The notes beneath the pieces were generated by a model that was given only the letters and a program-made list of their open reading frames with translations, was not told the DNA's origin and ran no database searches. Of a stretch of DNA of 64,000 nt, positions 9,480 through 39,570 are shown piece by piece; positions within the stretch are counted from its first letter, which is position 1, and every line of letters starts with the position of its first letter. A program made the position numbers and the translations under genes. The DNA lies in NCBI GenBank assembly GCA_021796415.1, contig JAJYJC010000002.1, positions 7,983 through 71,982 on the forward strand, in the 5' to 3' direction. The DNA is from a bacterium. GTDB lineage: Bacteria; Patescibacteriota; CPR2; UBA1875; JAJYID01.

Positions 9480-9486
9480 TAGTTCG

Positions 9487-9613
9487 AGGTATGCAATAAT
9501 AGCTTTCGAAGCGCTGAGATGTTCCCTCGGAGCATCCGAGACTAAAGTCTCAGAACACCACTTCGGGAGACGCTGCCTCCCAAAAAACTTAAGCCGTTGG
9601 CTTGGGTTTTTTA
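9487..9613 (+). ncRNA. candidate small RNA (~125 nt) between a consensus promoter and an intrinsic terminator
   Basis: No ORF. Internal hairpins ctgaga...tctcag and gggag...ctccc. Terminal hairpin aagccgttggctt followed by a T6 run. Confidence 0.3.
9588..9613. terminator. bidirectional intrinsic terminator
   Basis: Hairpin ttaagcc-gtt-ggcttgg flanked by A6 upstream and T6 downstream. Confidence 0.5.
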
Positions 9614-9614
9614 T

Positions 9615-10262
9615 TTAGCTAAATAGTTCCTTACCATCGCCAATTATATTATTTTTAAGGATCTTGAAATATATTTTCCCATGCTTCTTGTCCTCTAGAT
9701 AATGTGCTATACAACCCGTTATCCAGTCAGCTATTTGAATATTTGCACTGGTAGTAGAATCAACCATCTCTATTTGAATAAGAGTATTTTTCGACATCTT
9801 AGGTAAGAGCTGAGCCTGTAACAATGAATTGAACTGACTTCTTTTGATGCCTTTTAAATGTCTCTGGTCGCAAAATGCTCTAAACTCCTTGTCCGCTATT
9901 GGCAAATACATTTCCAGTGTATCTCCTATAATCTGCGTATAGAGTTCCCCGGCCTTGATTTTGCCTTTATGAATAAACTCTTCGGGAATATTTTTCCTTT
10001 TAAGATAAGAATACCTAATTCTTACATCCAAGTCAGCGATGTATTGGACGGTTTTGATCCTCAGTTCATCTTGAATATTTACGTCAGAAAACTTAACCTC
10101 AGGTTGATTTCTCATCTTGCGAGGAAACTTTTCTTTGTGCCATGACCTAAACCTTTTCTCCGTGCGCCTTGGGTCACCAACGGTAAACGAACCAACTACA
10201 AAATATTCACCATCTTTTGATTTGTTAAATTGTCCGCTCTCATCAATATAAATATATGGCAC
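9615..10262 (-). CDS. DUF3800-like protein
   Basis: N-terminus MPYIYIDESGQF matches the DUF3800 hallmark (IYIDESG). Confidence 0.5.
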   Translation of the reverse strand: MPYIYIDESGQFNKSKDGEYFVVGSFTVGDPRRTEKRFRSWHKEKFPRKMRNQPEVKFSDVNIQDELRIKTVQYIADLDVRIRYSYLKRKNIPEEFIHKGKIKAGELYTQIIGDTLEMYLPIADKEFRAFCDQRHLKGIKRSQFNSLLQAQLLPKMSKNTLIQIEMVDSTTSANIQIADWITGCIAHYLEDKKHGKIYFKILKNNIIGDGKELFS

Positions 10263-15396: not shown

Positions 15397-16923
15397 GTGA
15401 GACTAATGGGTAGAAGGGGTAGGCAAAGGATATGGACTGAGGAAGTTGTCATCAACACGCTTAAATCTCTGAAAAAGAATGGCGAACCGGTTAACACGCA
15501 GTACCTGATTAACAACCACCGATCATTGCGTTCGGCTATGGTGAAGAGATTCGGTTCCTGGGAAAAAGCTGTTGTTGCAGCCGGGCTAGATCCCAAAAAG
15601 GAACGAGCTAAAAACCAACCTACTAAGAGCAATAATGCCCGGAAAGAAGCAGTGGTCAAGACTACGCCTCAGTCTAAACGGAAATCTTCCAGGAAATGGC
15701 GTGGTACTTACAAGCAATGGAGTAAGGATAAGATCATTGCCCAGTTGCATGAAATCAAGCTCAACGGAGAAGCCATCAGTTATAATTCATTGAGACAAAA
15801 TGGCTACAGTGGCCTTGCGGCTGCAGCTTGCCGTTACTTCGGTTCATGGGAAAAAGCAATCATAGCGTCTGGTTTTGATCCCGACCAAGAAAGCTTGGTT
15901 AAGAGATCTGGAAAGCCTTCTGAAAGTTGGGATAAAGACAAGGTCATTTCTAGATTCAAAGAGATCAAAGCCAAAGGCGGCAGTATCAACTATAAGGCCA
16001 TACAAGAAAATCATTATGGTCTTTGGAGTGCGGCTTGTTACTACTTTGGTTCCTGGGAAAAGGCGGTCACTGTTGCTGGCTTTAACCCCGATGAGGAGAA
16101 GCTGTTTCAGAAATTTGCGCTGAAGAGGAAGATAGGAAGACATCCCTTGGCCCCTTCAGAGGAATATGAGCGATCCTTAGTAAAGCAAGGCAAGCTCAAT
16201 GTTCTCTTTCCAGCCATGAGACAGCTTAGAGAACAATTAGGACGAGCTGCGACAGACGTCGAAATTGCACATTTCCTCAAAAAGTCGGTGGAGGAGATTG
16301 CTAATTGGCAATCAAGCAGAGAGAGGCTAATCCTCTCTTACCTGCCACTAGCAGAGAGCTATGCAAGGCATTTTTATGAGCATCAAGTCAAGGTAAGGCA
16401 TCTGACTTCTGACAATAAGTACAACAGAGAAGAATTCAGGGCTTTTGGCAGTCTATGGCTAGTTGAAGTTATGGAGGAATTCGATTGGGGCGACGAATTC
16501 GGTGGTTTTTCTGGCTATTTCAAGGTAGCATTTGAAAGGAGGATATATTACCGATATCTGATCAAGGAGATCGAAAATCCTATCATATCATTTGACTATG
16601 AAATAGAGTCTGGGCGAGATGGTAGCAGAATGATCCTCGCGGATATAATTGCTGACCCTCGGTCTCTACCAGAACCAGAATACGACCCAAAACAGTTATC
16701 CTTCATAAAAAGCGCCCTTAATCAACTGCCGGGAAGTCTCAAGCATGCACTTATGTGGGATCTTGGCATGGAATTTCATGACAAGACGCCCGCGGAGTTT
16801 GCAACTTTTCTGGGGGTTGCCATTGGAGACATAGACGAGCTCATCAAAACTGCTATTAGGAAGTTCTCAAGTATAGTTTTTCAACCCGGACTTCCTGACG
16901 GCGATCAGGCTTTAGCCTCATGA
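15397..16923 (+). CDS. sigma-70-like protein with three N-terminal ~55-aa repeats
   Basis: C-terminal HTH LKHALMWDLGMEFHDKTPAEFATFLGVAIGDIDELIKTAIRKF (region 4-like). Central segment LILSYLPLAESYARHF...FSGYFKVAFERRIYYRYL (region 2-like). The N-terminal repeats share W..EKVI...KEIK..G..I.Y..L..N...L..A...YFGSWEKA...AGF[DN]P. Confidence 0.5.
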   Translation: MRLMGRRGRQRIWTEEVVINTLKSLKKNGEPVNTQYLINNHRSLRSAMVKRFGSWEKAVVAAGLDPKKERAKNQPTKSNNARKEAVVKTTPQSKRKSSRKWRGTYKQWSKDKIIAQLHEIKLNGEAISYNSLRQNGYSGLAAAACRYFGSWEKAIIASGFDPDQESLVKRSGKPSESWDKDKVISRFKEIKAKGGSINYKAIQENHYGLWSAACYYFGSWEKAVTVAGFNPDEEKLFQKFALKRKIGRHPLAPSEEYERSLVKQGKLNVLFPAMRQLREQLGRAATDVEIAHFLKKSVEEIANWQSSRERLILSYLPLAESYARHFYEHQVKVRHLTSDNKYNREEFRAFGSLWLVEVMEEFDWGDEFGGFSGYFKVAFERRIYYRYLIKEIENPIISFDYEIESGRDGSRMILADIIADPRSLPEPEYDPKQLSFIKSALNQLPGSLKHALMWDLGMEFHDKTPAEFATFLGVAIGDIDELIKTAIRKFSSIVFQPGLPDGDQALAS

Positions 16924-22384: not shown

Positions 22385-24496
22385 TTGAATCAAATGGAAA
22401 CAAGAGAAAGTCAACAATTTAACAATCAAACAGCTTTTCCAGAAAATCAGCACACTTACAACGATCTGAATTCTGGTGATATTGAAAACCAAGAAATTCA
22501 TTTTTCTGAGGAGCAAAAGACGGCAATCGAACAAAAAAGAAGAGTTCTTTCTTCTCTTGCCTACTTTATTGGTAAGGATTTTCAGATCCCTGTAGAGCTG
22601 AATGAACCGGGTATGGGTTGGCACTGGGATTTTAAGAAAAATGAAATCAAAGTCGATCCTAAAGATCTTATTGAAAAACCCATGGACTACTTAAGATTCG
22701 TTATTTCTCACGAGGGAGGACATCGCCGTATCTCTCGGACAGAATCGATTCCTCTCGAGACTTGGAAGCAGCCCGGTTTTTCTTTCATGATGAATGCGAT
22801 TGAAGATCCCAGAGATAACAACTTTGTGGCTGAAAACTACCCAAGATTTAGAAGTCAAATGGATGTGGCGTATAAAGACAGTATGGAACTTAAGCAAGAA
22901 TCTGCGCAGAAAGCAAGTGATGAGCTCGGTTATCAGCCTCGTTTTATGCAAGCTGGCTTTGAGTATATTAAGCAGTGGCACAAAGAACAAAAAGGTGAAA
23001 AATTTTCTGTAAGCGAAGATTTACCAAAAGAAGTTCGAGAGGTTGTTGAAAAGACTTTGAATGCGGCAAGCGACTCATGGTGGCGCTATCCGTCAAGAGA
23101 AGAAGCTGACTCAAGTGAAGAGACAATCAAAAAATATGCTGAGGCCTCTTATCGAATAAACCTAGAAAGAATTTGGCCTGAGTTTCAAAAACTTGTTGAG
23201 AAGGATATGGAAGATCAAAATATGCAAGAACTCCTAGGCCAGATGCAAACAAGTGAGGAAGAGGGTGGCTCGGGGTTACCTCAAGAACTCGAAGATAATC
23301 TATCGCCAGAAGAACAAAAGGTATTAGAAGAAGCAATCGAACAAGCCATGCAGAGTGGTGCTGAGGTACAGGAACAAACAGAAGCTGGCACACGAGGCAA
23401 ACCAATTGATTTAAGCTCTTTACCCGACGAGTTGAAACAAAAAATCCAAGATTATATTAATTCTTTGCCGGAAGATCAAAAGCGAGAACTTGCAGAAAAA
23501 GCAAGGGCGGCATTGTCTGATTTTGAAAAAGAACTAGATGAGGAATTGGGAGGGAAACTCTCAGATAGCCCGGAGAAAAAAGCCGAACGAGGCGAAGAAT
23601 CTGAGATACCGTTAGAAAGTAAGGCAACTACGACCGAACCAATTACCCCGGAAGAGTCCGATGAAGTGAGAAAATACAGAGAATTTATAGAACAAGAGCT
23701 ATCAAAAGACGCTAATGCCTATGAAAGACATCGCCGAGAGGTTTTACCCATTATTGACCAGCTTGAACAAGATTTAAGAGAAATTTTTGTTATGAGAAGA
23801 TCTGGCCAATGGGAAAGCGGATTTAGGTCAGGAAAAAGAATTGATATCAAAAGAAGAATACAAGAAAAAGCCAAGGGCGTATCTGCAATGGAGAGTAAGG
23901 CGTGGGAAAAGAGAGAATTGCCCCAAGAAAAGGATTATGCTGTCAGTCTGCTTGCTGATTTATCAGGATCAATGCGAGGAGAAAAGATAAAGGAAACTTT
24001 TAAGGCAGTCATTGTGTTATCTGAAGTGCTAAACAGATTATCAATCCAAACAGAGATTCTGGGCTTTAACAACAGGATTTATGATTATCAAAACTTTGGT
24101 GAGGACATATCAAACCAAAAACGAGAAAACATGGGCGGTATGCTTCAAGAAGTTGCGGGTAGCGGACACAGGTGGAACGATGACGGTTGGGCTGTTGAGC
24201 AGGCATCGGAGCGACTGGCAAAACAAAGAGCGAAAGAAAAGTTTCTTATTGTCCTTTCAGATGGCTTGCCGGAGGAATCTTCTGCCCATCCAAGAGCAAA
24301 GTATGAGCTTGGATCTGTGGTGCAAAAAATTATTGGCTCAACGGATCAAAAGTTAATTGGATTGGGCATCGGTCCAGATACAAATCATGTTGAAAATTAC
24401 TACCCAAATAGTATTTCCAATGTAAATGTAAAGGAAATGGCTGGAAAGCTGGCCGACCTCATCCGTGAAGCTATTGCTAATTTTGATAAATTTTAA
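22385..24496 (+). CDS. VWA-domain protein with an N-terminal HExxH metallopeptidase-like motif
   Basis: ISHEGGHRRI (HExxH). Acidic coiled-coil linker. C-terminal VWA domain with MIDAS DLSGSM and LIVLSDGLPEE. The architecture resembles DUF2201-type partners of MoxR-like ATPases. Confidence 0.65.
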   Translation: MNQMETRESQQFNNQTAFPENQHTYNDLNSGDIENQEIHFSEEQKTAIEQKRRVLSSLAYFIGKDFQIPVELNEPGMGWHWDFKKNEIKVDPKDLIEKPMDYLRFVISHEGGHRRISRTESIPLETWKQPGFSFMMNAIEDPRDNNFVAENYPRFRSQMDVAYKDSMELKQESAQKASDELGYQPRFMQAGFEYIKQWHKEQKGEKFSVSEDLPKEVREVVEKTLNAASDSWWRYPSREEADSSEETIKKYAEASYRINLERIWPEFQKLVEKDMEDQNMQELLGQMQTSEEEGGSGLPQELEDNLSPEEQKVLEEAIEQAMQSGAEVQEQTEAGTRGKPIDLSSLPDELKQKIQDYINSLPEDQKRELAEKARAALSDFEKELDEELGGKLSDSPEKKAERGEESEIPLESKATTTEPITPEESDEVRKYREFIEQELSKDANAYERHRREVLPIIDQLEQDLREIFVMRRSGQWESGFRSGKRIDIKRRIQEKAKGVSAMESKAWEKRELPQEKDYAVSLLADLSGSMRGEKIKETFKAVIVLSEVLNRLSIQTEILGFNNRIYDYQNFGEDISNQKRENMGGMLQEVAGSGHRWNDDGWAVEQASERLAKQRAKEKFLIVLSDGLPEESSAHPRAKYELGSVVQKIIGSTDQKLIGLGIGPDTNHVENYYPNSISNVNVKEMAGKLADLIREAIANFDKF

Positions 24497-24508
24497 TAAA
24501 ATTACGTT

Positions 24509-24934
24509 ATGATAAAGGAAAAATTTTCAACCTTTTTAGAATATTCTTTGTCTCAAAAAGAAGTTTCTCTAATCGTGGCCAAACATGAAAATGAGCTTTC
24601 TCATTTTGAGAGGTGGCTTGAAGACAAGGGGTTTAGAAGAGCTGCTCATGCTTTTGACTTGCTTGACAACCTTGAAGATCATAAGAAACTTTACGTGATT
24701 TTAAAAACAGAGAATGGCAAAGATTCCTATGATTTTGCGGCTCAGTTTCCAACGGGTCAGATTGAGCTTTTTGATAAAAAAACCATGAAAAAGATGCTAA
24801 AAAATATTGATTATAAAAACCGATCAATAGTCTTTTTAACCACAAAGCATCATCTCTTCGACCTTGAAAAGGAGGATTTTAATTTTCTCTCATCAGTTGG
24901 TATGGCTTTCAGAAATGGAGATGCCCATGTCTAG
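24509..24934 (+). CDS. hypothetical protein (141 aa)
   Basis: ORF between the VWA and ATPase genes. Confidence 0.4.
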   Translation: MIKEKFSTFLEYSLSQKEVSLIVAKHENELSHFERWLEDKGFRRAAHAFDLLDNLEDHKKLYVILKTENGKDSYDFAAQFPTGQIELFDKKTMKKMLKNIDYKNRSIVFLTTKHHLFDLEKEDFNFLSSVGMAFRNGDAHV

Positions 24935-27002
24935 TCCGGAATTTAGTTTACTTACCGATCCTGAGCAGGAAAAGCCTGTAGAGGATAAGCATCAGGAAGA
25001 AAAAAGCGAGACTCTCGCTCCGATTGCGGAGGATGAAACCTCGGTTTCATATCTAGGGGTAAGATTAGAAAAAGGGCATGTGCCAAGCCCCTTTATACCA
25101 GAGAGAGATAAATATACTGACTATATAAATGATCGATTTACCCTGGAGCTACAGCAGAAGATTGCCATCGGCTTTCAGTCGGGCGACCCTACTCTTATCG
25201 AAGGCGGGACTAGTATCGGTAAGACTACAGCAGCCAGAAAGATGTGTGCGGAACTTGGCTGGGAAGTTCATTATGCTAACTTGAATAAGGCCACGGATGT
25301 TGAAGATTTAATGGGCCGATATATTCCAAATCCTCATCGAACCAAACCTGATGATCCCGAGTTCGTTTTTGCCGATGGAAGAGTTACGGCCGGCCTAAGA
25401 CAGGAAGAAGGAAAAATAAAAGTTATCATCCTTGATGAATATAATGCGGCAGCGCCAAACATTGTAATCCGCCTGCATGAGGTACTAGATGCCCTTGAGC
25501 GTGATGGAGATGTTGTGCTATCGGAAGATGCCTCAGAAACCGTTCCTGTATCGAAAGATAAGACGAAATTAATTGCCCTCACTAATCCGCCCGGAAAAGG
25601 TTACTTTGGTCGTGAACCGCTAGATCCGGCTCAGTTAAGAAGATGGGTCTACCAGAAAGAAGCGAGCAATTTACCCGAAAATACTTTCTCTTTTTCAACC
25701 AAAAGTCTCTTTGGCTTGGTCTCGGAAAATGGCGATGTTATTCCCGAAGAAGTTTACCTAGAATCTCATGAAGACACTCTTTCTTCTCAGCAAATTGCTG
25801 AAATTCCCGGTATTAGCGAAGTGGAGGCAAAGTATGAAGAGTTTCATAGGGCAGCGAAAGAGCTTTTGAAAAATAGAACCATTGCTGCCGATCAACCGCA
25901 ACAGTTTACTTTTGATGATAGAATGGAGCCAAGACGGGTACGAGACTTTGTAATGAGGTTTTACAGCGGAGATATCAATGAAACTTTTCAGCAAGCTCTA
26001 AGATATTATTATTCGAATAAACTAGAGTCAGACGAAGACAGGCAGAAGATTGAAGAGCTAATCTCTCATGTAGGATACACTCCTCAGCCCGACTCAAGAA
26101 GGTTGGGTCTTGAGGATGAATCACGCCCAGAGGGAGTTGGCCTAAGAGATCAAGTCGAGATCGGCATAGAAGATATTTTGCAGGACCCGGCCATTCCGGA
26201 TTCAGTCAAAGAGGTTCTAAGAGTTGAGGGGGTAAAGTTTTCTGAGGCAAAGGAAATAATGAACCAAGATTTTATCGGTCCAGACGAGATTAAAAAAGCT
26301 TTTGGTTTAGAGGTGGATAGAGTACCAGATATTCCCTTTTCAAGAAGCGAACTGGAAAGAGCTAAGGAACTCGATCAAATGCTTATATATAGAACGGGTA
26401 CTGCTGCCCGAGGCGAGCCGATGACTATGGAAAAGATAAATGGCCTTCTTTCCGGCAAGACTAAAGATGGCGGAAAGATATTTTTTGATACTGATTGGTA
26501 TAAAGATGAGGCATTTTTTAAGTCTGAAGCAATCAAGGAAGGATGGTCTCTTGTGTCTAAGGAAGTTATATCTGAGTCGACCAGCAAGAACTATCTGGAG
26601 CAAACCGAGACAATGGTAGATTATCTTAGGAGTAAAGTTTTTGCAGGAGGCGATGTGCCAGAGGAATATCAGGAAGCAATTGGCCAATTTGAAAGCCAAA
26701 AAGATGAAATTTCAAAATTGATAGAAAGTAACTGGAAGAAAGCGGCTGAAAAACTAGAGGGTCTTTCCATTACTCACATGACCAGACAAAGACCGGTTGA
26801 AGCTATCTATGACTTAGTTGCTGTTTATGAGAATACTGATGACCATCTACTTTCTAACAGATATACTTGGACTTCCGCGCGTGACTCTGGCGGCAAGCTG
26901 GTCCGTGTGGGCTACTTCGATGCCAGGGGCGTGCGTGTCCACGGGGGCAGTCCCGACGATCGGTATGACAATCTGGGCGTTTCTTTCTCCCGCAGTCAGT
27001 GA
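24930..27002 (+). CDS. AAA_5/MoxR-like ATPase fused to a C-terminal DGR variable (target) domain
   Basis: Walker A GGTSIGKTTAARKM. Walker B VIILDEYN. Sensor 1 LIALTNPPG. Arginine motif LDPAQLRRW. The last 113 bp before the stop is VR1. The start is uncertain (24864-24930). Confidence 0.7.
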   Translation, partial: SSPEFSLLTDPEQEKPVEDKHQEEKSETLAPIAEDETSVSYLGVRLEKGHVPSPFIPERDKYTDYINDRFTLELQQKIAIGFQSGDPTLIEGGTSIGKTTAARKMCAELGWEVHYANLNKATDVEDLMGRYIPNPHRTKPDDPEFVFADGRVTAGLRQEEGKIKVIILDEYNAAAPNIVIRLHEVLDALERDGDVVLSEDASETVPVSKDKTKLIALTNPPGKGYFGREPLDPAQLRRWVYQKEASNLPENTFSFSTKSLFGLVSENGDVIPEEVYLESHEDTLSSQQIAEIPGISEVEAKYEEFHRAAKELLKNRTIAADQPQQFTFDDRMEPRRVRDFVMRFYSGDINETFQQALRYYYSNKLESDEDRQKIEELISHVGYTPQPDSRRLGLEDESRPEGVGLRDQVEIGIEDILQDPAIPDSVKEVLRVEGVKFSEAKEIMNQDFIGPDEIKKAFGLEVDRVPDIPFSRSELERAKELDQMLIYRTGTAARGEPMTMEKINGLLSGKTKDGGKIFFDTDWYKDEAFFKSEAIKEGWSLVSKEVISESTSKNYLEQTETMVDYLRSKVFAGGDVPEEYQEAIGQFESQKDEISKLIESNWKKAAEKLEGLSITHMTRQRPVEAIYDLVAVYENTDDHLLSNRYTWTSARDSGGKLVRVGYFDARGVRVHGGSPDDRYDNLGVSFSRSQ
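26878..26990 (+). repeat. DGR variable repeat VR1 (113 bp)
   Basis: Matches the TR at 29518-29630 with 13 substitutions, all at TR adenine positions. Confidence 0.85.
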
Positions 27003-27085
27003 TACTTTGAAAATTGATTTTTGAAACTTTGATACGCCGAAGGCGTCGGACACAAAATTTTAACAGAAGGTAATAAGGATAAAAA

Positions 27086-28066
27086 ATGAGCGAAATCGGA
27101 TCACCACAACCTGAAATACCGGAGGAAGCGGTAGAAAAAGAAGCTGAGGGTATTAGAATTGCCACAGAAATATCTGAGCTTAGGGCAAGTGCCCGTAATG
27201 AAGCTGATTATGAGAATATTTTGCAAAAAACTCGAGAGCTAAAGGAGCTTTTTGGGATAGTTGTAGAAGGTAAGCTTTCTGGCGAAGTTGCGGAACAGAT
27301 GAGTATGGCCAAAGAAATCATGGAGGAGGATTTTTTCGGTCCGGATGAGATTAAAAAAGCCCTTGGCATTGAAGTGACTGAAATGCCGGACATCCCATTC
27401 AAAAAAGAGGAACTAGAAAGAGCAAAGGAGCTAGAACAGATATTGATTTTGCGGACAGACAAAGCTTCCGATGGCAGTCCTCTAACAATGGAAAAGGTTC
27501 GCGACATGATGGGTAACGAAGACAAAGATGGCGGAAAAATCTTTTGGGAGAGCGCTGACTGGTATAAAGATGAAGCTTTTTATACCAAAGAGACTGCTAA
27601 AGTTGGTTGGGCGTTGGTCTCTAAAGAGGAAATTCCTGATGCAACCAATAAAAATTATTTAGAACAAACAGAAAGTCTTGTTACTTACCTCAAAAACCAA
27701 GTTTTTGCCGGAAAACCGATGCCAAAAGAATATCAGGATGCCGTAGGCGAATTTGAATCACAGAAGTCAACAATAGAGAGTTTGGTCGAAGATGACTGGA
27801 AAGCTGCAGCAGAGAAGTTATCCAAGCTTTCCATTACCAAGCTCACCCGCCAATCACCGGTTGAGGCCATTTATGATATAGTAGTGCATTATCAGAACAC
27901 GGATGAGAGATTGCTAGAAGAAATGTATACTTGGACTTCCGCGCGTGACTCTGGCGGCAGGCTGGTCCATGTGGGCGGCTTCGGTGCCGAGGGCGTGAAT
28001 GTCAACGGGAGCAGTCCCGACTCTCGGTATGACTTTCTGGGCGTTTCTTTCTCCCGCAGTCAGTGA
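27086..28066 (+). CDS. DGR target protein paralog (326 aa)
   Basis: About 65% identical to the C-terminal 270 aa of the 24930-27002 product. VR2 sits at its 3' end. Confidence 0.7.
   Translation: MSEIGSPQPEIPEEAVEKEAEGIRIATEISELRASARNEADYENILQKTRELKELFGIVVEGKLSGEVAEQMSMAKEIMEEDFFGPDEIKKALGIEVTEMPDIPFKKEELERAKELEQILILRTDKASDGSPLTMEKVRDMMGNEDKDGGKIFWESADWYKDEAFYTKETAKVGWALVSKEEIPDATNKNYLEQTESLVTYLKNQVFAGKPMPKEYQDAVGEFESQKSTIESLVEDDWKAAAEKLSKLSITKLTRQSPVEAIYDIVVHYQNTDERLLEEMYTWTSARDSGGRLVHVGGFGAEGVNVNGSSPDSRYDFLGVSFSRSQ
27942..28054 (+). repeat. DGR variable repeat VR2 (113 bp)
   Basis: Matches the TR with 14 substitutions, all at TR adenine positions. Confidence 0.85.
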
Positions 28067-28123
28067 TACTTTGAAAATTGATATTTGAAACTTTGATACG
28101 CCGAAGGCGTCGGACACAAATTT

Positions 28124-29194
28124 TTAACTATCGATGATTTTATCGATTTCTTTTTTAATCTCTGCTCCTCTGCAGTGACTTAAAATCCCTAAATATGATT
28201 GAACCATTTGCTTGAAAGATTGCTGGTCTTCTTCACTCCCGGAAAGCAAATACTTTTTTGCTCTAATCTTCCTCAGCATTCTTTTCTTGGTCTTTGTTCT
28301 AAGGATTATATGGTATGGAAAAACAACATAACCCAAAAAGTCAATTCCTTGGCTAAACTTTCTGAGAACAATTTTGTCCGAATGAAGTTGTAGGCGAAGT
28401 TCTTTTTTTAAGAAATGAGCTAATGTTGGTATCAGTTTTTCTAGATGTTTGACATCTGTGCTCAAGATCACAAAGTCGTCTGCATAACGGATGTAATATT
28501 TCTCCTTGAGATTTCTTTTGACAAATTGATCAAGGGCATTCAAATAGACATTAGAGAAAAGCTGGCTGGTGAGATTTCCCAAAGGTATACCTCGCCTTGG
28601 TTCATTCTTTAGCTGATTTGTATTGAAACTCTCTATAATCTCTTCTAGTAAAGCTATCAGGTCTTTTTCTTGAATCACCTTTTCAATTAGGTTTAAAAGT
28701 ATGTCGTGATCAACTGAATCAAAAAATTTCCTTATATCGCACTTCAAAACCCAGACAGTTCTTGTATTATTTTTAGATAGTTTCCACGCAAAATATCGAA
28801 GGCGGTGAACTGCCTTATGCGTCCCTTTTTCTTTTCGGCTGGAGTACGAGTCAAAAATAAATTTCTTTTCAAAAACAGCTTCAATGACGCGGAAAATAGC
28901 GTGATGTAAAACCCGATCAAGAACCAGAGCCTTATTGATGGTTCTAAGTTTTGGGTCAGTGACATAAAATGTTGTATAATCAGAATGTCGATAACAATTA
29001 TTTTTCAGCTCATTGTGAAGTTTGTAAATTTGATTTTCAGGATTTAGGGCAAATGCCTGAACATCTAGCTTGCTTTCTTTACCCTTTTTAAATTCTCTCC
29101 AGGCGGAGAAGAGATTTTCCAATGATATTATTTGATCAAACAAACTATGACAACCACTCCTGACAACAGATTTTCCGATATTTCGATTATTCAT
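28124..29194 (-). CDS. DGR-type reverse transcriptase
   Basis: RT motifs: DGR-characteristic GIPLGNLTSQLFSNVYLNALDQFV (LGNxxSQ in place of the group II intron QGxxxSP), YIRYADDFVIL (YADD), GIDFLGY. The start codon may be the downstream TTG (about 29140). Confidence 0.8.
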   Translation of the reverse strand: MNNRNIGKSVVRSGCHSLFDQIISLENLFSAWREFKKGKESKLDVQAFALNPENQIYKLHNELKNNCYRHSDYTTFYVTDPKLRTINKALVLDRVLHHAIFRVIEAVFEKKFIFDSYSSRKEKGTHKAVHRLRYFAWKLSKNNTRTVWVLKCDIRKFFDSVDHDILLNLIEKVIQEKDLIALLEEIIESFNTNQLKNEPRRGIPLGNLTSQLFSNVYLNALDQFVKRNLKEKYYIRYADDFVILSTDVKHLEKLIPTLAHFLKKELRLQLHSDKIVLRKFSQGIDFLGYVVFPYHIILRTKTKKRMLRKIRAKKYLLSGSEEDQQSFKQMVQSYLGILSHCRGAEIKKEIDKIIDS

Positions 29195-29512
29195 AAAACC
29201 TACAAGTTTTATCTTGCTTTATATTCCACAAATCAGTTTTTACCAAAGAGAGATCGATATACTCTTGGGGTGAAAGCCGAAAATATTAGTTTGGAGATTC
29301 TTGAAACGTTATATTTAGCCAATTCTAAAGCTGGCAATATCCGCCTAGAACTGCTAGAAAAAGCCGATGTGAAGTTAAAAGTTCTCCAAGCAGTCATACG
29401 CCTTTGCCACGATACAAAAGCGCTTGATCAAAACAAATATCTTGCTTTGCAGTCTGCATTGCAAGAAATAGGGAAAATGCTTGGAGGTTGGATAAAAACT
29501 ACAAAAAGTTAG
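29132..29512 (+). CDS. Avd-like four-helix-bundle accessory protein
   Basis: Similar to the Avd / 23S-rRNA-intervening-sequence four-helix-bundle family (…LPKRDRYTLGVKAENISLEILETL…, C-terminal EIGKMLGGWIK). Lies between the RT and TR on the opposite strand. The start may be the internal Met at 29147. Confidence 0.55.
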   Translation: MIKQTMTTTPDNRFSDISIIHKTYKFYLALYSTNQFLPKRDRYTLGVKAENISLEILETLYLANSKAGNIRLELLEKADVKLKVLQAVIRLCHDTKALDQNKYLALQSALQEIGKMLGGWIKTTKS

Positions 29513-29517
29513 ACTTC

Positions 29518-29630
29518 GGAGAAAGAAACGCCCAGATTGTCATTCCGATTGTCGGGACTGTTCCTGTTGACATTCACGCCCTTGGCATCGAAGTTGCCCA
29601 CATTGACCAGCTTGCCGTCAGAGTCACGCG
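29518..29630 (-). repeat. DGR template repeat (TR, 113 bp, sense on the minus strand)
   Basis: The reverse complement aligns base for base with VR1 and VR2. Every mismatch is at a TR adenine (17 of 27 adenines vary across the two VRs). Variable codons are mostly AAY. Confidence 0.85.
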
Positions 29631-30451: not shown

Positions 30452-31045
30452 TTATCCTAAAATAATGCTTATTATATTAAATACAGCTACGATACTTTTA
30501 ACCAATATTACCATAACTTGGCGCATAACCGCGAATAATCCGGAAAACATGCCCTTTAAAATAAACTCTAATATAGACGCTCTAGTGCCGGCCATTAGTT
30601 TTAAATTGCCGTCTAAATCCAGGTGCGATATAATCTGAGCAGTCAACGCCTCATCTTCTGTTCTTGTCATTAACTCTCTGCTTGATCTTTGGGAGAGAAT
30701 ATTCATACTTCCTGTCCAAAGAATCTTTTTGTCAATCACGGCTACTTTTTCATGTATAGAACCTTCGAGAAAAACCACTTTCGCCCCTAAATTCTCATAG
30801 ATTTGGGCAGCGGCTCTAGCTTCTTCTTGAACATATTCTTCATGTTCTCCAATAGGTCGGGTAAATATAAAAAGTTTAATGTTTTTAATCCTCAGTCTAA
30901 CAAAGGTCTTCCTGAAGAAATCAGCCCGATGCTTCGTAATAAAAGGACTATAAATAATAACCTCTTTCTCGGCTTTCAGTATATCTTTTGTAAAAGCCGG
31001 GTAAAAAGTGCGTTCGTTATAGATTGTTGTTGTTTGGTTTATCAA
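30452..31045 (-). CDS. PLD-family (HKD) nuclease-like protein with a C-terminal hydrophobic tail
   Basis: Single HKD motif HEKVAVIDKKILWTGSMN (HxKxxxxDxxxxxxGSxN), as in Nuc-type endonucleases. Confidence 0.6.
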   Translation of the reverse strand: MINQTTTIYNERTFYPAFTKDILKAEKEVIIYSPFITKHRADFFRKTFVRLRIKNIKLFIFTRPIGEHEEYVQEEARAAAQIYENLGAKVVFLEGSIHEKVAVIDKKILWTGSMNILSQRSSRELMTRTEDEALTAQIISHLDLDGNLKLMAGTRASILEFILKGMFSGLFAVMRQVMVILVKSIVAVFNIISIILG

Positions 31046-34992: not shown

Positions 34993-36417
34993 TAATAAAA
35001 TTATATATAGTTCTAGTAAAGGATTTTTTATATAAAAAAGACAATAAAAAGCTTGATTTATTTTTTTAAGTTTGCTAAACTTTATAAAGCTAATAAAAAC
35101 AGGTCATTTATGACAAACGAAACGACAACTAAATACAGAGTGGACGGAAGCGGCTGTTAGCCAAAAAATTAAGTTGCTTTAAGGAAGTCCGCTAAAGGCG
35201 GATTTTTAAATTGTTTTGGCAAATTGGCGTGAAAAGATTTCAAATCGATTCAGCCGAAACAATTCGCGCCTCGCGCGAAAGTATACAGTATCCCGTATTC
35301 AGTATTGAGGTTTTATACCGAATGCACAATACTCGATACCCAATACTGTCAAGCGAGCATTGCGAGTTAAGATCGGACTTTGACAACTGAATACAGATAC
35401 ATGCTAATCCTTAAGGATTCAAGGTCGGATGTTAAATTTTTAATTTTGCATTTTGAATTTTGAATTACAGTATGTATCTTAGGGTAAACGAAATATTACA
35501 ATTTCAAATCCAGTTGATGATTACTGGTTAAGTTCGTGTCTCACTTTCGTTCGACAACGAACAGTATGCGGTATTCTGTATTCAGTATTGAGGAATTAAT
35601 CCCAATACACAATACTCGATACGCAATACTGATTATTCGCGAGCGGTAGCGAGATACGAATAAATCATCATTAAGTCAAGAAAGAGCATATGGTGGATGC
35701 CTTGGGATTTCAGGCCGATGAAGGACGTAGTAAGCTGCGATAAGCTTCGGGGAAGTGCTAAACAACTTTTGATCCGGAGATTTCCGAATGGAGCAATCCG
35801 GCTCGGGTTATGCCGAGTCACACTTAGCTGAATACATAGGCTATTTGAGGGCACGCGGAGAACTGAAACATCTTAGTACCCGCAGGAAAAGATATCAACC
35901 GATATTCCGTCAGTAGTGGCGAGCGAAAGCGGAAAAGCCAAAACTTTTTTAATGTTAAAGCTTATGGGCGTTGTTAAAAAAGTGTTGTGAGGTAGATACA
36001 CTCCTTTTTGGAGGTTAGATTTGGGACACTGGCTTGTGCTTTGCACAAGGAAATTCAAAGTACTAAATCCGAAATCCGAAACAAAACTTCAAATTCAAAA
36101 TACTAAACTAGAAACGTGTTTAGAACATTTGAATTTAGATATTAGATATTGTTTCGTGCTTCGAGATTAGAATTTAGGATTTTCTCGCGTAAAGCGCGAG
36201 TTTAGCTCCAAAACTAATACCAGGATCCATAAATCTTGGGTAAGGTAAGAAAACGAGAGTTTTAATGGAATATTCTGGAAAGAATAACCATAGAGGGTGA
36301 TAGTCCCGTACGTAAAAAAACTTTTGTCCTTATGTATTTATTCTCTAGTACTACGGAGCCCGTGAAACTCTGTAGGAATCTGGGTGGACCACCATCCAAG
36401 GCTAAATACCTGAAATC

Positions 36418-36462
<45 letters not shown>

Positions 36463-38288
36463 TGTTAGGGGAGTGAAATAGAATCTGAAACCGTATGCTT
36501 ACAGACGGTCGGAGCCGATACTTTGTATCGGGAATGTCTAATTTCCAATTAGCAATTTCCAGTCAATGAATAAATGTCTAATTTCCAATTTTGGAATTTA
36601 AAGCATTAGGATTTGATTGGACATTAGAAATTGGTCATTGGTAATTCTGATACAGAGTGTCGGTGACGGCGTGCCTTTTGTAGAATGAGCCAACGAGTTA
36701 CCCCGCACTTTTTGTCTAAGCCGTTCCGCGGTGGAGGCGAAGGGAAACCGAGTGTTAATAGCGCGATTTTAAAAGTGCTGGGTAGACCCGAAACCGGGTG
36801 ACCTATCCATGGGCAGGCTGAAGCGGCGTTAAACCGTCGTGGAGGGCCGAACCCACTTACGTTGCAATGTGAGGGGATGACCTGTGGATAGCGGAGAAAT
36901 TCCAATCGAACCCGGAAATAGCTGGTTCTCTCCGAAATAGCTTTAGGGCTAGCGTCATAAATTCGCTTTTGGAGGTAGAGCACTGACTGGGCTAGGGGGC
37001 ATATAGCTTACCAAACCCAAATAAACTCCGAATTCCGAAAGTTTTATTATGGCAGTCAGAACGTGGGGGCTAAGCTCCACGCTCGAAAGGGAAACAGCCC
37101 AGATCGCCATCTAAGGTCCCTAAGTCTATGCTAAGTGGAAAAGGATGTGAGATCGCATAAACAACCAGGAGGTTGGCTTAGAAGCAGCCATGCCTTTAAA
37201 GAGTGCGTAACAGCTCACTGGTCTAATGCGATTTTGCGCCGAAGATATAACGGGGCTAAGCATAGCACCGAAGATGCGAGTTCGCCGTAGGCGAACACAG
37301 AGTAACTAAAGAACCAAGGAACGGAAGAACAAAAAGACAAATTCATTTGTTTTAAGTTTTTCAGTTCTTATGTTCATCTGTTATTTTGTGCTCGTCTATG
37401 GCGAGCGGTAGGAGAGCGTTCCATACTGCAGTGAAGCTGAACTGGAAAGTTTGGTGGAGTGTATGGAAGTGAGAATGTTGGCATGAGTAACCAAAATCCC
37501 TGTGAAAAACAGGGACACCGTAAACCCAAGGTTTCCTGGGCAACGATAATCGTCCCAGGGTTAGTCGGTCCTAAGCCGAGGCCGAAAGGCGTAGGCGATG
37601 GACAACAGGTTGATATTCCTGTACTGCTTATTTTGTTCCCACAAGTGACGCAGGATGGTAGCCGGAGCATTTTATGGCTATAGGTGTCTAAGTGTCTAGG
37701 TGCTTCGCTTTTGTTTCGCAAGTGAAAAGTTAAAAATGCAAAGTGAAAAGTTGTCGTATTCTTCGGATGATTTATAATCGTCGCGAAGCGACTCATAAAC
37801 TTTCAACTTTTAAATTTGAACTTTAAATTATTTGCGACGCGTAAGCGGAGCATTGAAGCACGAATGAAATCTCCGTAAAACGAGAAATTCCGGTAAGCCA
37901 AACTGACTAGAAAAGCTTGTGATTAATAGAGATAAGCAACCGTACCGAAAACCAACACAGGTGGGTGGGTAGAGAATACCAAGGTGCTCGGGAGAACCCT
38001 CGTTAAGGAACTCGGCAAAACAGCGGGCGTAACTTCGGGATAAGCCCTGCCTGGGTGTGCCGCTTTGTTCCTGAGAACGAAATGCATAAAAACAAAAAGT
38101 TGAGAAAAGAAGTGAAGACAAGAAACTCGGGAGCATAGCGGCACATCTAGGCCGCAGCGAATGAGTCCAGGCGACTGTTTATCAAAAACACAGGTCTCTG
38201 CTAAATCGTAAGATGAAGTATAGGGGCTGACGCCTGCCCAGTGCTGGAAGGTTAAGTGGATGGGTGCAAGCTCTGAAATGAAGCCCCA

Positions 38289-38344
<56 letters not shown>

Positions 38345-39143
38345 GAAAATCGGAACTGCCCGAAACGCGCGGTGACGCGCGGCAAGCAAACTGGCTAATA
38401 ACGGTGAAACCCTACTATCATTAATGTTATAATGATGTACGAGGGCAATACCGTGGCAACTGGTCGTTAAGCGACAGTATACAGTATTCTGTATCCAGTA
38501 TTGGGGGTTTTAAATCCTCAATACACAATACCCTATACTCAATACTATCGCGAGATGCGATTGGAGCCGTAACGACTGAACCGAAAGGTGAGGCTCTGCG
38601 AAAAACAGGGCAATACGCCAGCTCTCGCTAAAAGAAAGGCGACTATGGATTAGAATATTGAACTTCATAATTCTAAAAAAGATCCTAAGGTTGTTGGCGA
38701 GATGAAGATATAGTCTGATCAATACGGTAACGTATTGCGAACATATGAAGTTCCGACCCGCACGAATGGCGGAACGGTCTGGACACTGTCTCAACGAGGG
38801 ACCCGGTGAAATTGCAATAGCGGTAAAGATGCCGTTTACCCGCGACAAGACGGAAAGACCCCGTGGAGCTTTACTACAGCTTGGCATTGGATTAGGGTCT
38901 TGCATGTGTAGGATAGGTGGGAGACTTTGAAGCCGGAACGCTAGTTTCGATGGAGTCGCTGGTGAAATACCACCCTTGTAAGGTTTTGATTCTAACCCGG
39001 ACCGAAAATTGGAAACAATTTTCTTCCAAGATTTAAAAGTTGTCAGAGAAGCTGCTACAATTAATTTTCCAAAATAGCTTTAGCAACTTTTAAACTACTG
39101 GAGCAGATTGCTTTCAGTTTCCGGTTCGGAGACAGTGTCTGGT

Positions 39144-39176
<33 letters not shown>

Positions 39177-39396
39177 GGTAACGGAGGCGTTCAAAGGTGG
39201 GCTAGGTCTGGATGGAAATCAGACTGATAGTGCAAACGCATAAGCCCGCTTGACTGCAAGGCCTACAAGCCGCGCAGAGACGAAAGTCGGAGTTAGTGAT
39301 CTTTTGAGTGCACGTGGGTGCCTCATTGCTTAACGGACAAAAGCTACCCCGGGGATAACAGGCTTATAGGATCCAAGAGTCCACATCGACGATCCT

Positions 39397-39433
<37 letters not shown>

Positions 39434-39467
39434 GTGAAGCAGCTCCCAAGGGTTTGGCTGTTCGCCA

Positions 39468-39523
<56 letters not shown>

Positions 39524-39570
39524 TGTCGTGGGCGTTGAAACTTGAGGAGATCTGTCCCTAGTAAGAAATT

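Follow-up and report, generated by a model that had tools for sequence, protein, structure and literature searches.

Why would a bacterium diversify part of an ATP-dependent motor protein? The question is raised by a locus in a 64,000-nt stretch of DNA from a member of the Patescibacteriota, or candidate phyla radiation (CPR) (GenBank assembly GCA_021796415.1, contig JAJYJC010000002.1, positions 7,983 to 71,982). We refer to the whole stretch as the window, and positions are those of the window. Four co-directional genes, encoding proteins of 700, 141, 691, and 326 aa, stand there next to a diversity-generating retroelement (DGR), and two of the four are its targets: the gene for the 691-aa protein, an AAA_5 ATPase that ends in a module with a predicted C-type lectin (CLec)/FGE fold, and the gene for the 326-aa protein, which consists of such a module on its own. 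The reading that we favor, and to which we would give an even chance on the strength of sequence features and of analogy with characterized relatives, is that the locus encodes a MoxR-VWA-type, ATP-driven protein-remodeling machine with a programmable client-recognition site.

The DGR is complete and canonical, with a reverse transcriptase (RT), Avd, a 113-nt template repeat (TR), and two variable repeats (VRs), one in each target. Its elements lie as follows.

26878-26990, + strand: VR1, with 13 mismatches to the TR, each at a TR adenine and in codon position 1 or 2
27034-27046, + strand: GC-rich hairpin (ACGCC-GAA-GGCGT) downstream of VR1
27942-28054, + strand: VR2, with 14 mismatches to the TR, each at a TR adenine
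28098-28110, + strand: the same GC-rich hairpin downstream of VR2
28124-29194, - strand: DGR reverse transcriptase (Pfam RVT_1, 2.9e-25; PADLOC RT, 1e-52; LGNLTSQ and YADD motifs)
29147-29512, + strand: Avd (Pfam bAvd, 1e-18; NCBIfam DivGenRetAVD, 84.9 bits versus a cutoff of 80)
29518-29630, - strand: TR, with 27 adenines, 17 recodable codons, and ~5e15 theoretical protein variants

VR1 and VR2 are each 88% complementary to the TR, and 27 of the 27 mismatches in the two repeats fall at TR adenines, all of them in codon position 1 or 2. Chance is not the source of a pattern confined in this way. Each VR forms the C-terminus of the lectin-fold domain and is followed by an end resembling an initiation of mutagenic homing (IMH) sequence and by the hairpin. 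The ~75 nt that lie 3' of the VRs and contain this hairpin are identical behind both, and tail and hairpin are absent after the TR. The avd gene lies between RT and TR on the strand opposite to both. RT and avd diverge from 5' coding ends that share ~48 nt (29147-29194) if the RT starts at the ATG at 29194, an N-terminus that is conserved in two related loci (L002 and L033); the TR therefore lies upstream of the RT, across the antisense avd gene. The same placement of Avd, opposite in strand to the RT and between TR and RT, was found in 35/35 related loci. In 34 of these 35, the RT runs in the direction of the target, and the inverted state is otherwise seen only in L039. Because of this prevailing orientation, we regard the TR-Avd-RT block of the window (28124-29630) as an inverted variant.

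The proteins upstream of the retroelement show what kind of machinery the diversified module is attached to. The four genes are given here in their order on the + strand.

22394-24496 (open reading frame [ORF] 22385/22394-24496), + strand: 700-aa partner with a putative zincin-like domain, an acidic linker, and a CobT/midasin-type VWA domain
24509-24934, + strand: 141-aa small partner, whose stop overlaps the ATPase ATG (24927) by 8 nt (ATGTCTAG)
24927-27002, + strand: target 1 (691 aa), with an AAA_5 ATPase, helical lid, linker, and C-terminal module of predicted CLec/FGE fold ending in VR1
27086-28066, + strand: target 2 (326 aa), a stand-alone module of predicted CLec/FGE fold

In target 1, translation places Walker A (GGTSIGKTT) at 25203-25229, Walker B (ILDEYN) at 25428-25445, sensor-1 (LIALTN) at 25569-25586, and an LRRW motif at 25635-25646. 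The protein matches Pfam AAA_5 (6.1e-12; 46.2 bits versus a cutoff of 22), and a profile search of the PDB made with 26 ATPase homologs returned the AAA modules of midasin (2.5e-29) and NorQ (9e-4) as the nearest solved relatives. The Walker A, Walker B, sensor-1, and RR residues are invariant across these 26 homologs. Target 2 is a duplicate of residues 379 to 691 of target 1, with 55% identity.

The variable module gave no match to the Pfam FGE-sulfatase or DUF1566 families, and its fold was for this reason taken from structure. As modeled, the module has a CLec/FGE lectin fold. The closest structural matches were the tip domain of Bd2740 (8.9) and TvpA (8.7, with 156 residues aligned), followed by an FGE paralog, EgtB, and SenA (8.2 to 8.6), the C-terminal domain of Lcl (7.9), Mtd (7.2), and TaqVP (6.1). 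Variation within the family follows the template. Across 118 homologs, the positions that correspond to TR-adenine codons have entropies of 1.8 to 3.6 bits, and the Gly/Val/Phe/Pro scaffold positions interleaved with them have entropies of 0 to 1.5 bits. The two kinds of position alternate along the two terminal beta-strands of the module, the pattern that would be expected for a single exposed face. In the protein collection, each of the window proteins forms a cluster by itself and so has no population variants of its own. Among near-identical proteins from Magasanikbacteria, differences were found at 21 of 45 positions in the tail versus 52 of 641 elsewhere.

The lectin-like module is itself only one of several that the motor can carry. 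A single ATPase core bears at least four C-terminal VR tails that have no or marginal similarity to one another, and each tail has its own TR, with mismatches nearly all at adenines (for example, 15/15, 21/21, 10/11, and 20/21). Pfam searches with the alternative C-terminal tails of ten other loci gave nothing useful.

The 700-aa partner has an N-terminal HExxH domain (~aa 45 to 285), an acidic low-complexity linker (~aa 285 to 440), and then the VWA domain. The VWA half is readily recognized: Pfam reports CobT_C (5.2e-17) and VWA (4.4e-6; 27.5 bits versus a cutoff of 23.8), and profile searches of the PDB returned CobT (5e-16), the metal ion-dependent adhesion site (MIDAS) domain of midasin (3e-8), and NorD (2e-3). 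The MIDAS motif DLSGS (23957-23971), together with SDG, is invariant among homologs of the protein. In the N-terminal half, HEGGH (22709-22723) is followed 27 residues downstream by EDPR. H109, E110, H113, and E140/D141 (E140-D-P-R) are invariant in 56 homologs, the HExxH...E arrangement likewise holds in a second set of 68, and no part of the locus is better conserved than the 240 N-terminal residues. The protein thus presents an HExxH motif with a downstream acidic third ligand, as in gluzincins. No Pfam family, including DUF2201_N, SprT, and other peptidase models, matched this domain even at E values up to 10. Its AlphaFold2 model has a predicted local distance difference test score (pLDDT) of 69, and the fold matches are weak, with several minimal zincins (HtpX, projannalysin, selecase, Wss1, and DUF885) recurring among the best of them. 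As model quality is moderate and the fold matches are weak, we call the domain zincin-like with moderate confidence. A phage origin of the zincin domain was considered and rejected, since phage CobT-like proteins match residues 312 to 694 only. We also rejected cobaltochelatase CobS/CobT as the identity of the ATPase-VWA pair because the scores fall far below the NCBIfam equivalog cutoffs (18 bits versus 558.55 for CobS and 31.8 versus 759.05 for CobT). No CobN-like gene is conserved near the related loci.

The third component is the 141-aa protein, whose gene lies directly upstream of the ATPase gene in 73/77 loci (L001 to L077, drawn from species-representative genomes; this is the synteny set used throughout). 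It had 196 matches among representative proteins at E values up to 0.001, and among the 150 matches listed nearly all are stand-alone proteins of ~130 to 145 aa, with a few shorter fragments. A YDFxxQYPTGQ motif is conserved in this family. No relative was found in Pfam (E up to 10), the PDB, or PHROG, and, as judged from sequence, the protein has no detectable relatives outside the zincin-VWA/ATPase-lectin system.

This arrangement extends well beyond the window. Full-length homologs number at least 447 for the ATPase and 613 for the VWA protein, nearly all of them in Patescibacteria, and the order VWA gene, small gene, ATPase gene was found in 59 of the 65 loci whose upstream sequence extends far enough. 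In 34/51 loci, an RT follows within 6 kb downstream. No fourth gene is conserved around the trio in the 77 loci. The layout of the targets varies: in two loci from Doudnabacteria (L024, 7057-12181; L063, 6806-11985), two tandem pairs of small gene and ATPase-lectin gene stand behind a single VWA gene, and in five loci (L009, L014, L046, L070, and L075) a lectin-only target separates the VWA gene from the small gene. In 10/77 loci, a large serine recombinase (Resolvase, Recombinase, and Zn_ribbon_recom domains) is encoded within 10 kb, at a position that varies (for example, L003, 14629-16251).

An earlier note on this DNA, made from the sequence alone, had anticipated much of this anatomy. The ORFs and motifs that it quoted were recovered by translation where it had placed them, apart from the start of the ATPase gene, which it put at 24930 and which is called at 24927. 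Its AAA_5 and VWA assignments both clear the Pfam cutoffs given above; the HEGGH motif that it picked out is real and invariant among homologs; the CLec/FGE fold that it expected agrees with the structural matches; and target 2 is, as it said, a second target that carries the diversified module only. It described the VWA gene as immediately upstream of the ATPase gene. The gene is upstream, and the missed 141-aa ORF intervenes; with that small gene in between, the ATPase-VWA arrangement recurs across the CPR. The DUF2201_N domain that it suggested was not detected by profile search at E values up to 10.

How might such a set of proteins work together? The DGR recodes 17 codons in the tips of the two paralogous CLec/FGE domains, and we hypothesize that the variable lectin face thus formed would capture a fast-changing intracellular ligand, plausibly a phage protein or another foreign protein. 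The AAA+ ATPase, presumably assembled as a ring, would then act mechanically on the captured ligand together with its VWA partner, and the invariant HExxH domain would be the probable catalytic output, acting by cleavage. The free-standing module of target 2 may serve as a competing or auxiliary adaptor. The simplest form of this hypothesis is that a CPR machine has gained a second, hypervariable client-binding site on the motor itself. The four proteins have no signal peptide and no transmembrane or hydrophobic segment (maximum 19-residue hydropathy, <=1.2), and by this measure all of them look cytoplasmic; because they lack hydrophobic segments and include an ATP-dependent motor, a cytoplasmic site of action is indicated.

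Several observations weigh against a programmable remodeling machine of this kind. To our knowledge, characterized MoxR-VWA pairs are maturation chaperones and not immune systems. PADLOC found no defense-system match for the VWA, small, or lectin proteins. The exposure of the VR side chains is deduced from the sequence pattern and from fold homology. Finally, three loci (L008, L012, and L013; cluster P0092) keep the trio with no RT in the available downstream flank (~8 to 10 kb in L008 and L013; ~1.2 kb in L012), and in this cluster one VR sequence is present on 44 contigs, so that the tail is almost frozen. This suggests a specificity frozen after loss or relocation of the DGR. Since the trio persists in some lineages where no RT is near and the VR is nearly frozen, ongoing diversification is not essential.

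The hypothesis can also be taken further. The three-gene core might serve throughout the CPR as a "capture-and-cleave" or "sense-and-cleave" AAA+ machine programmed by a DGR, one that resembles adaptive immunity, acts inside the cell, and carries its hypervariable receptor on the motor. CPR bacteria are reported to have few known defense systems. We offer this wider proposal tentatively and consider it less likely than not.

What else could the locus be? The alternative that survives best is a sensor switch, in which binding of a ligand to the lectin domain would change the state of the ATPase, which would in turn activate the zincin-VWA protein; the latter would act as an effector of suicide or abortive infection, and the ligand would not itself be remodeled. 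The earlier note had drawn a similar comparison with NLR- and STAND-like sensors. The sensor switch has precedent: Kaur et al. (2020) and Doré et al. (2024) report CLec sensors, diversified by DGRs, that are coupled with effectors of the MoxR, vWA, and peptidase kinds. A logic of sensor, transducer, and effector has been proposed for these DGR-linked MoxR/vWA ternary systems, and the window locus has the same three functional domain classes. Against this stands the identity of the NTPase, which is of the AAA_5 (MoxR/midasin) class and not a STAND protein: AAA_5 was its only NTPase match in Pfam, with no NACHT, NB-ARC, or other STAND domain, so the likeness to NLR or STAND proteins is one of analogy only. 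Moreover, no VMAP, TIR, caspase, trypsin-type effector, or adaptor domain was detected with Pfam, the lectin sits on the motor instead of on the vWA protein, and the negative PADLOC result tells against a sensor switch as well. We consider a switch of this kind unlikely.

A second alternative is that the proteins form a housekeeping maturation chaperone like CobST, NorQD, or CbbQO and that the lectin tail serves only to tether the ATPase, during assembly, to an endogenous, fast-evolving client, for example a component of the surface or of a pilus. The closest relatives of both large proteins are indeed chaperone or chelatase components (CobT, NorD, NorQ, and midasin), and the persistence of the trio in lineages with no nearby RT would fit such a role. 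A repertoire of ~5e15 theoretical variants and four swapped VR tails is hard to reconcile with a single endogenous client, however; no client gene is conserved in the neighborhood, and the CobS and CobT equivalog cutoffs are missed by a wide margin. A dedicated chaperone of this sort therefore seems to us rather improbable.

The remaining alternative turns on the genes directly upstream of the window locus, which encode a type IV secretion system (T4SS) pilin-like protein, PrgI, a VirB4-like protein, and an M23 protein. The adjacency to a T4SS locus noted earlier is real in the window. It is not a conserved association: a VirB4-like gene is present in 0/77 related loci and M23 in 1/77, and a T4SS link was rejected on the former count. 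In this alternative, the DGR targets would be an exported adhesin or receptor, possibly delivered by this T4SS-like apparatus, with which an episymbiont attaches to its host or prey. The earlier note had considered host or prey recognition, and the CPR literature usually assumes that DGR targets serve attachment. Fused to an ATP-dependent motor, with neither signal peptide nor transmembrane segment and with no VirB4-like gene beside their relatives, the proteins make this version the least compatible with the data and very improbable.

Other features of the window lie outside the system. Just beyond the DGR, a gene for a PLD-like nuclease (30452-31045, - strand) gives weak PADLOC matches to MkoC and DrmC, and homologs of it occur near related loci L002, L020, and L023. 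The 23S rRNA gene (35669-39549) is 3,881 nt long versus 2,925 nt in the Rfam model; its ~950 nt of insertions matched no intron family at the gathering threshold. A DUF3800-V RNA motif (9485-9580; 71.5 bits) adjoins a minus-strand ORF (9615-10262), and in the ORF at 15397-16923, sigma-70 region 3 occurs together with an HNH_repeat domain, which is associated with homing endonucleases.

How much of this is new? DGRs are very common in the CPR, and the ATPase-lectin fusion is the most frequent target reported for them (Paul 2017, in the account given by Doré et al. 2024; Wu et al. 2018). The arrangement is therefore not new; the core finding is already known, and the window locus is typical of the main class of target that DGRs have in the CPR. 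Wu et al. (2018; PMC5758913) reported that the "UVR4" targets of the CPR carry a Midasin-type AAA motif, did not classify the VR fold, and assigned cassette architecture B3 to 90% of CPR DGRs. Doré et al. (2024, PNAS) independently suggested that the ATPase of CPR targets is a signal transducer, and Roux et al. found CPR DGR targets usually to be without recognizable domains. Apart from the full text of Paul 2017, which lay outside this comparison, we found in the literature no earlier description of the zincin-VWA protein and the 141-aa protein as conserved partners, of evidence for the fold of the VR module, or of swapping among several tails; the partner genes and the exchange of at least four receptor tails as modules may be previously undescribed. 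Taken together, the partners, the lectin fold, and the cytoplasmic look of the proteins shift the question from a surface adhesin to a programmable, ATP-driven complex for recognition or remodeling. The operon is compact (~5.7 kb plus a 1.5-kb DGR) and could be rebuilt in a heterologous host.

Among known systems, the variable module is matched in fold by TvpA, Mtd, TaqVP, FGE/EgtB, and Lcl (DUF1566), to which it has no detectable sequence similarity; it differs from them in a long helical insert (target 2 aa 191 to 272) and in its cytoplasmic, motor-fused context. For the motor and its partner, the counterparts are CobS-CobT, NorQ-NorD, CbbQ-CbbO, and midasin, which are the best matches among solved structures and which likewise combine an AAA_5 motor with a partner that has an acidic linker and a MIDAS VWA domain. 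In such characterized AAA_5/MoxR-VWA pairs, the MIDAS domain and the ring are established to remodel a bound client (see PMC9976466 and PMC13036017). These pairs have neither a hypervariable lectin nor an HExxH domain, and the window locus has no CobN or other client gene.

Closer in composition are the DGR-linked MoxR/vWA/VMAP ternary systems of cyanobacteria and gammaproteobacteria (Kaur et al. 2020, eLife; Doré et al. 2024), whose loci likewise encode a MoxR-class ATPase and a vWA protein together with a CLec/FGS domain that a DGR diversifies; some include two targets, a short one with CLec only and a long one, as the window locus does. There, the lectin either stands alone or forms part of the vWA protein, the ATPase is a protein of its own, and a VMAP protein carries peptidase, TIR, or adaptor domains. 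The window locus, by contrast, has its lectin on the ATPase and its zincin-like domain on the vWA protein; a VMAP signature is missing from its third gene, and its RT belongs to the CPR lineage. The 141-aa protein and its neighbors gave no VMAP-type Pfam match at E values up to 10 in a Pfam copy that was not checked for the presence of every VMAP model.

Closest of all are the CPR AAA-ATPase DGR targets themselves (Paul 2017, through Doré et al. 2024; the UVR4/Midasin targets of Wu et al. 2018). As far as these sources describe them, they come from the same host group and have an AAA_5/midasin-like N-terminus and a C-terminal VR, and they share with the window locus the cassette of TR, inverted avd, and RT, probably the B3 architecture of Wu et al. 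Nothing essential sets the window locus apart from these targets, and it is a member of that group.

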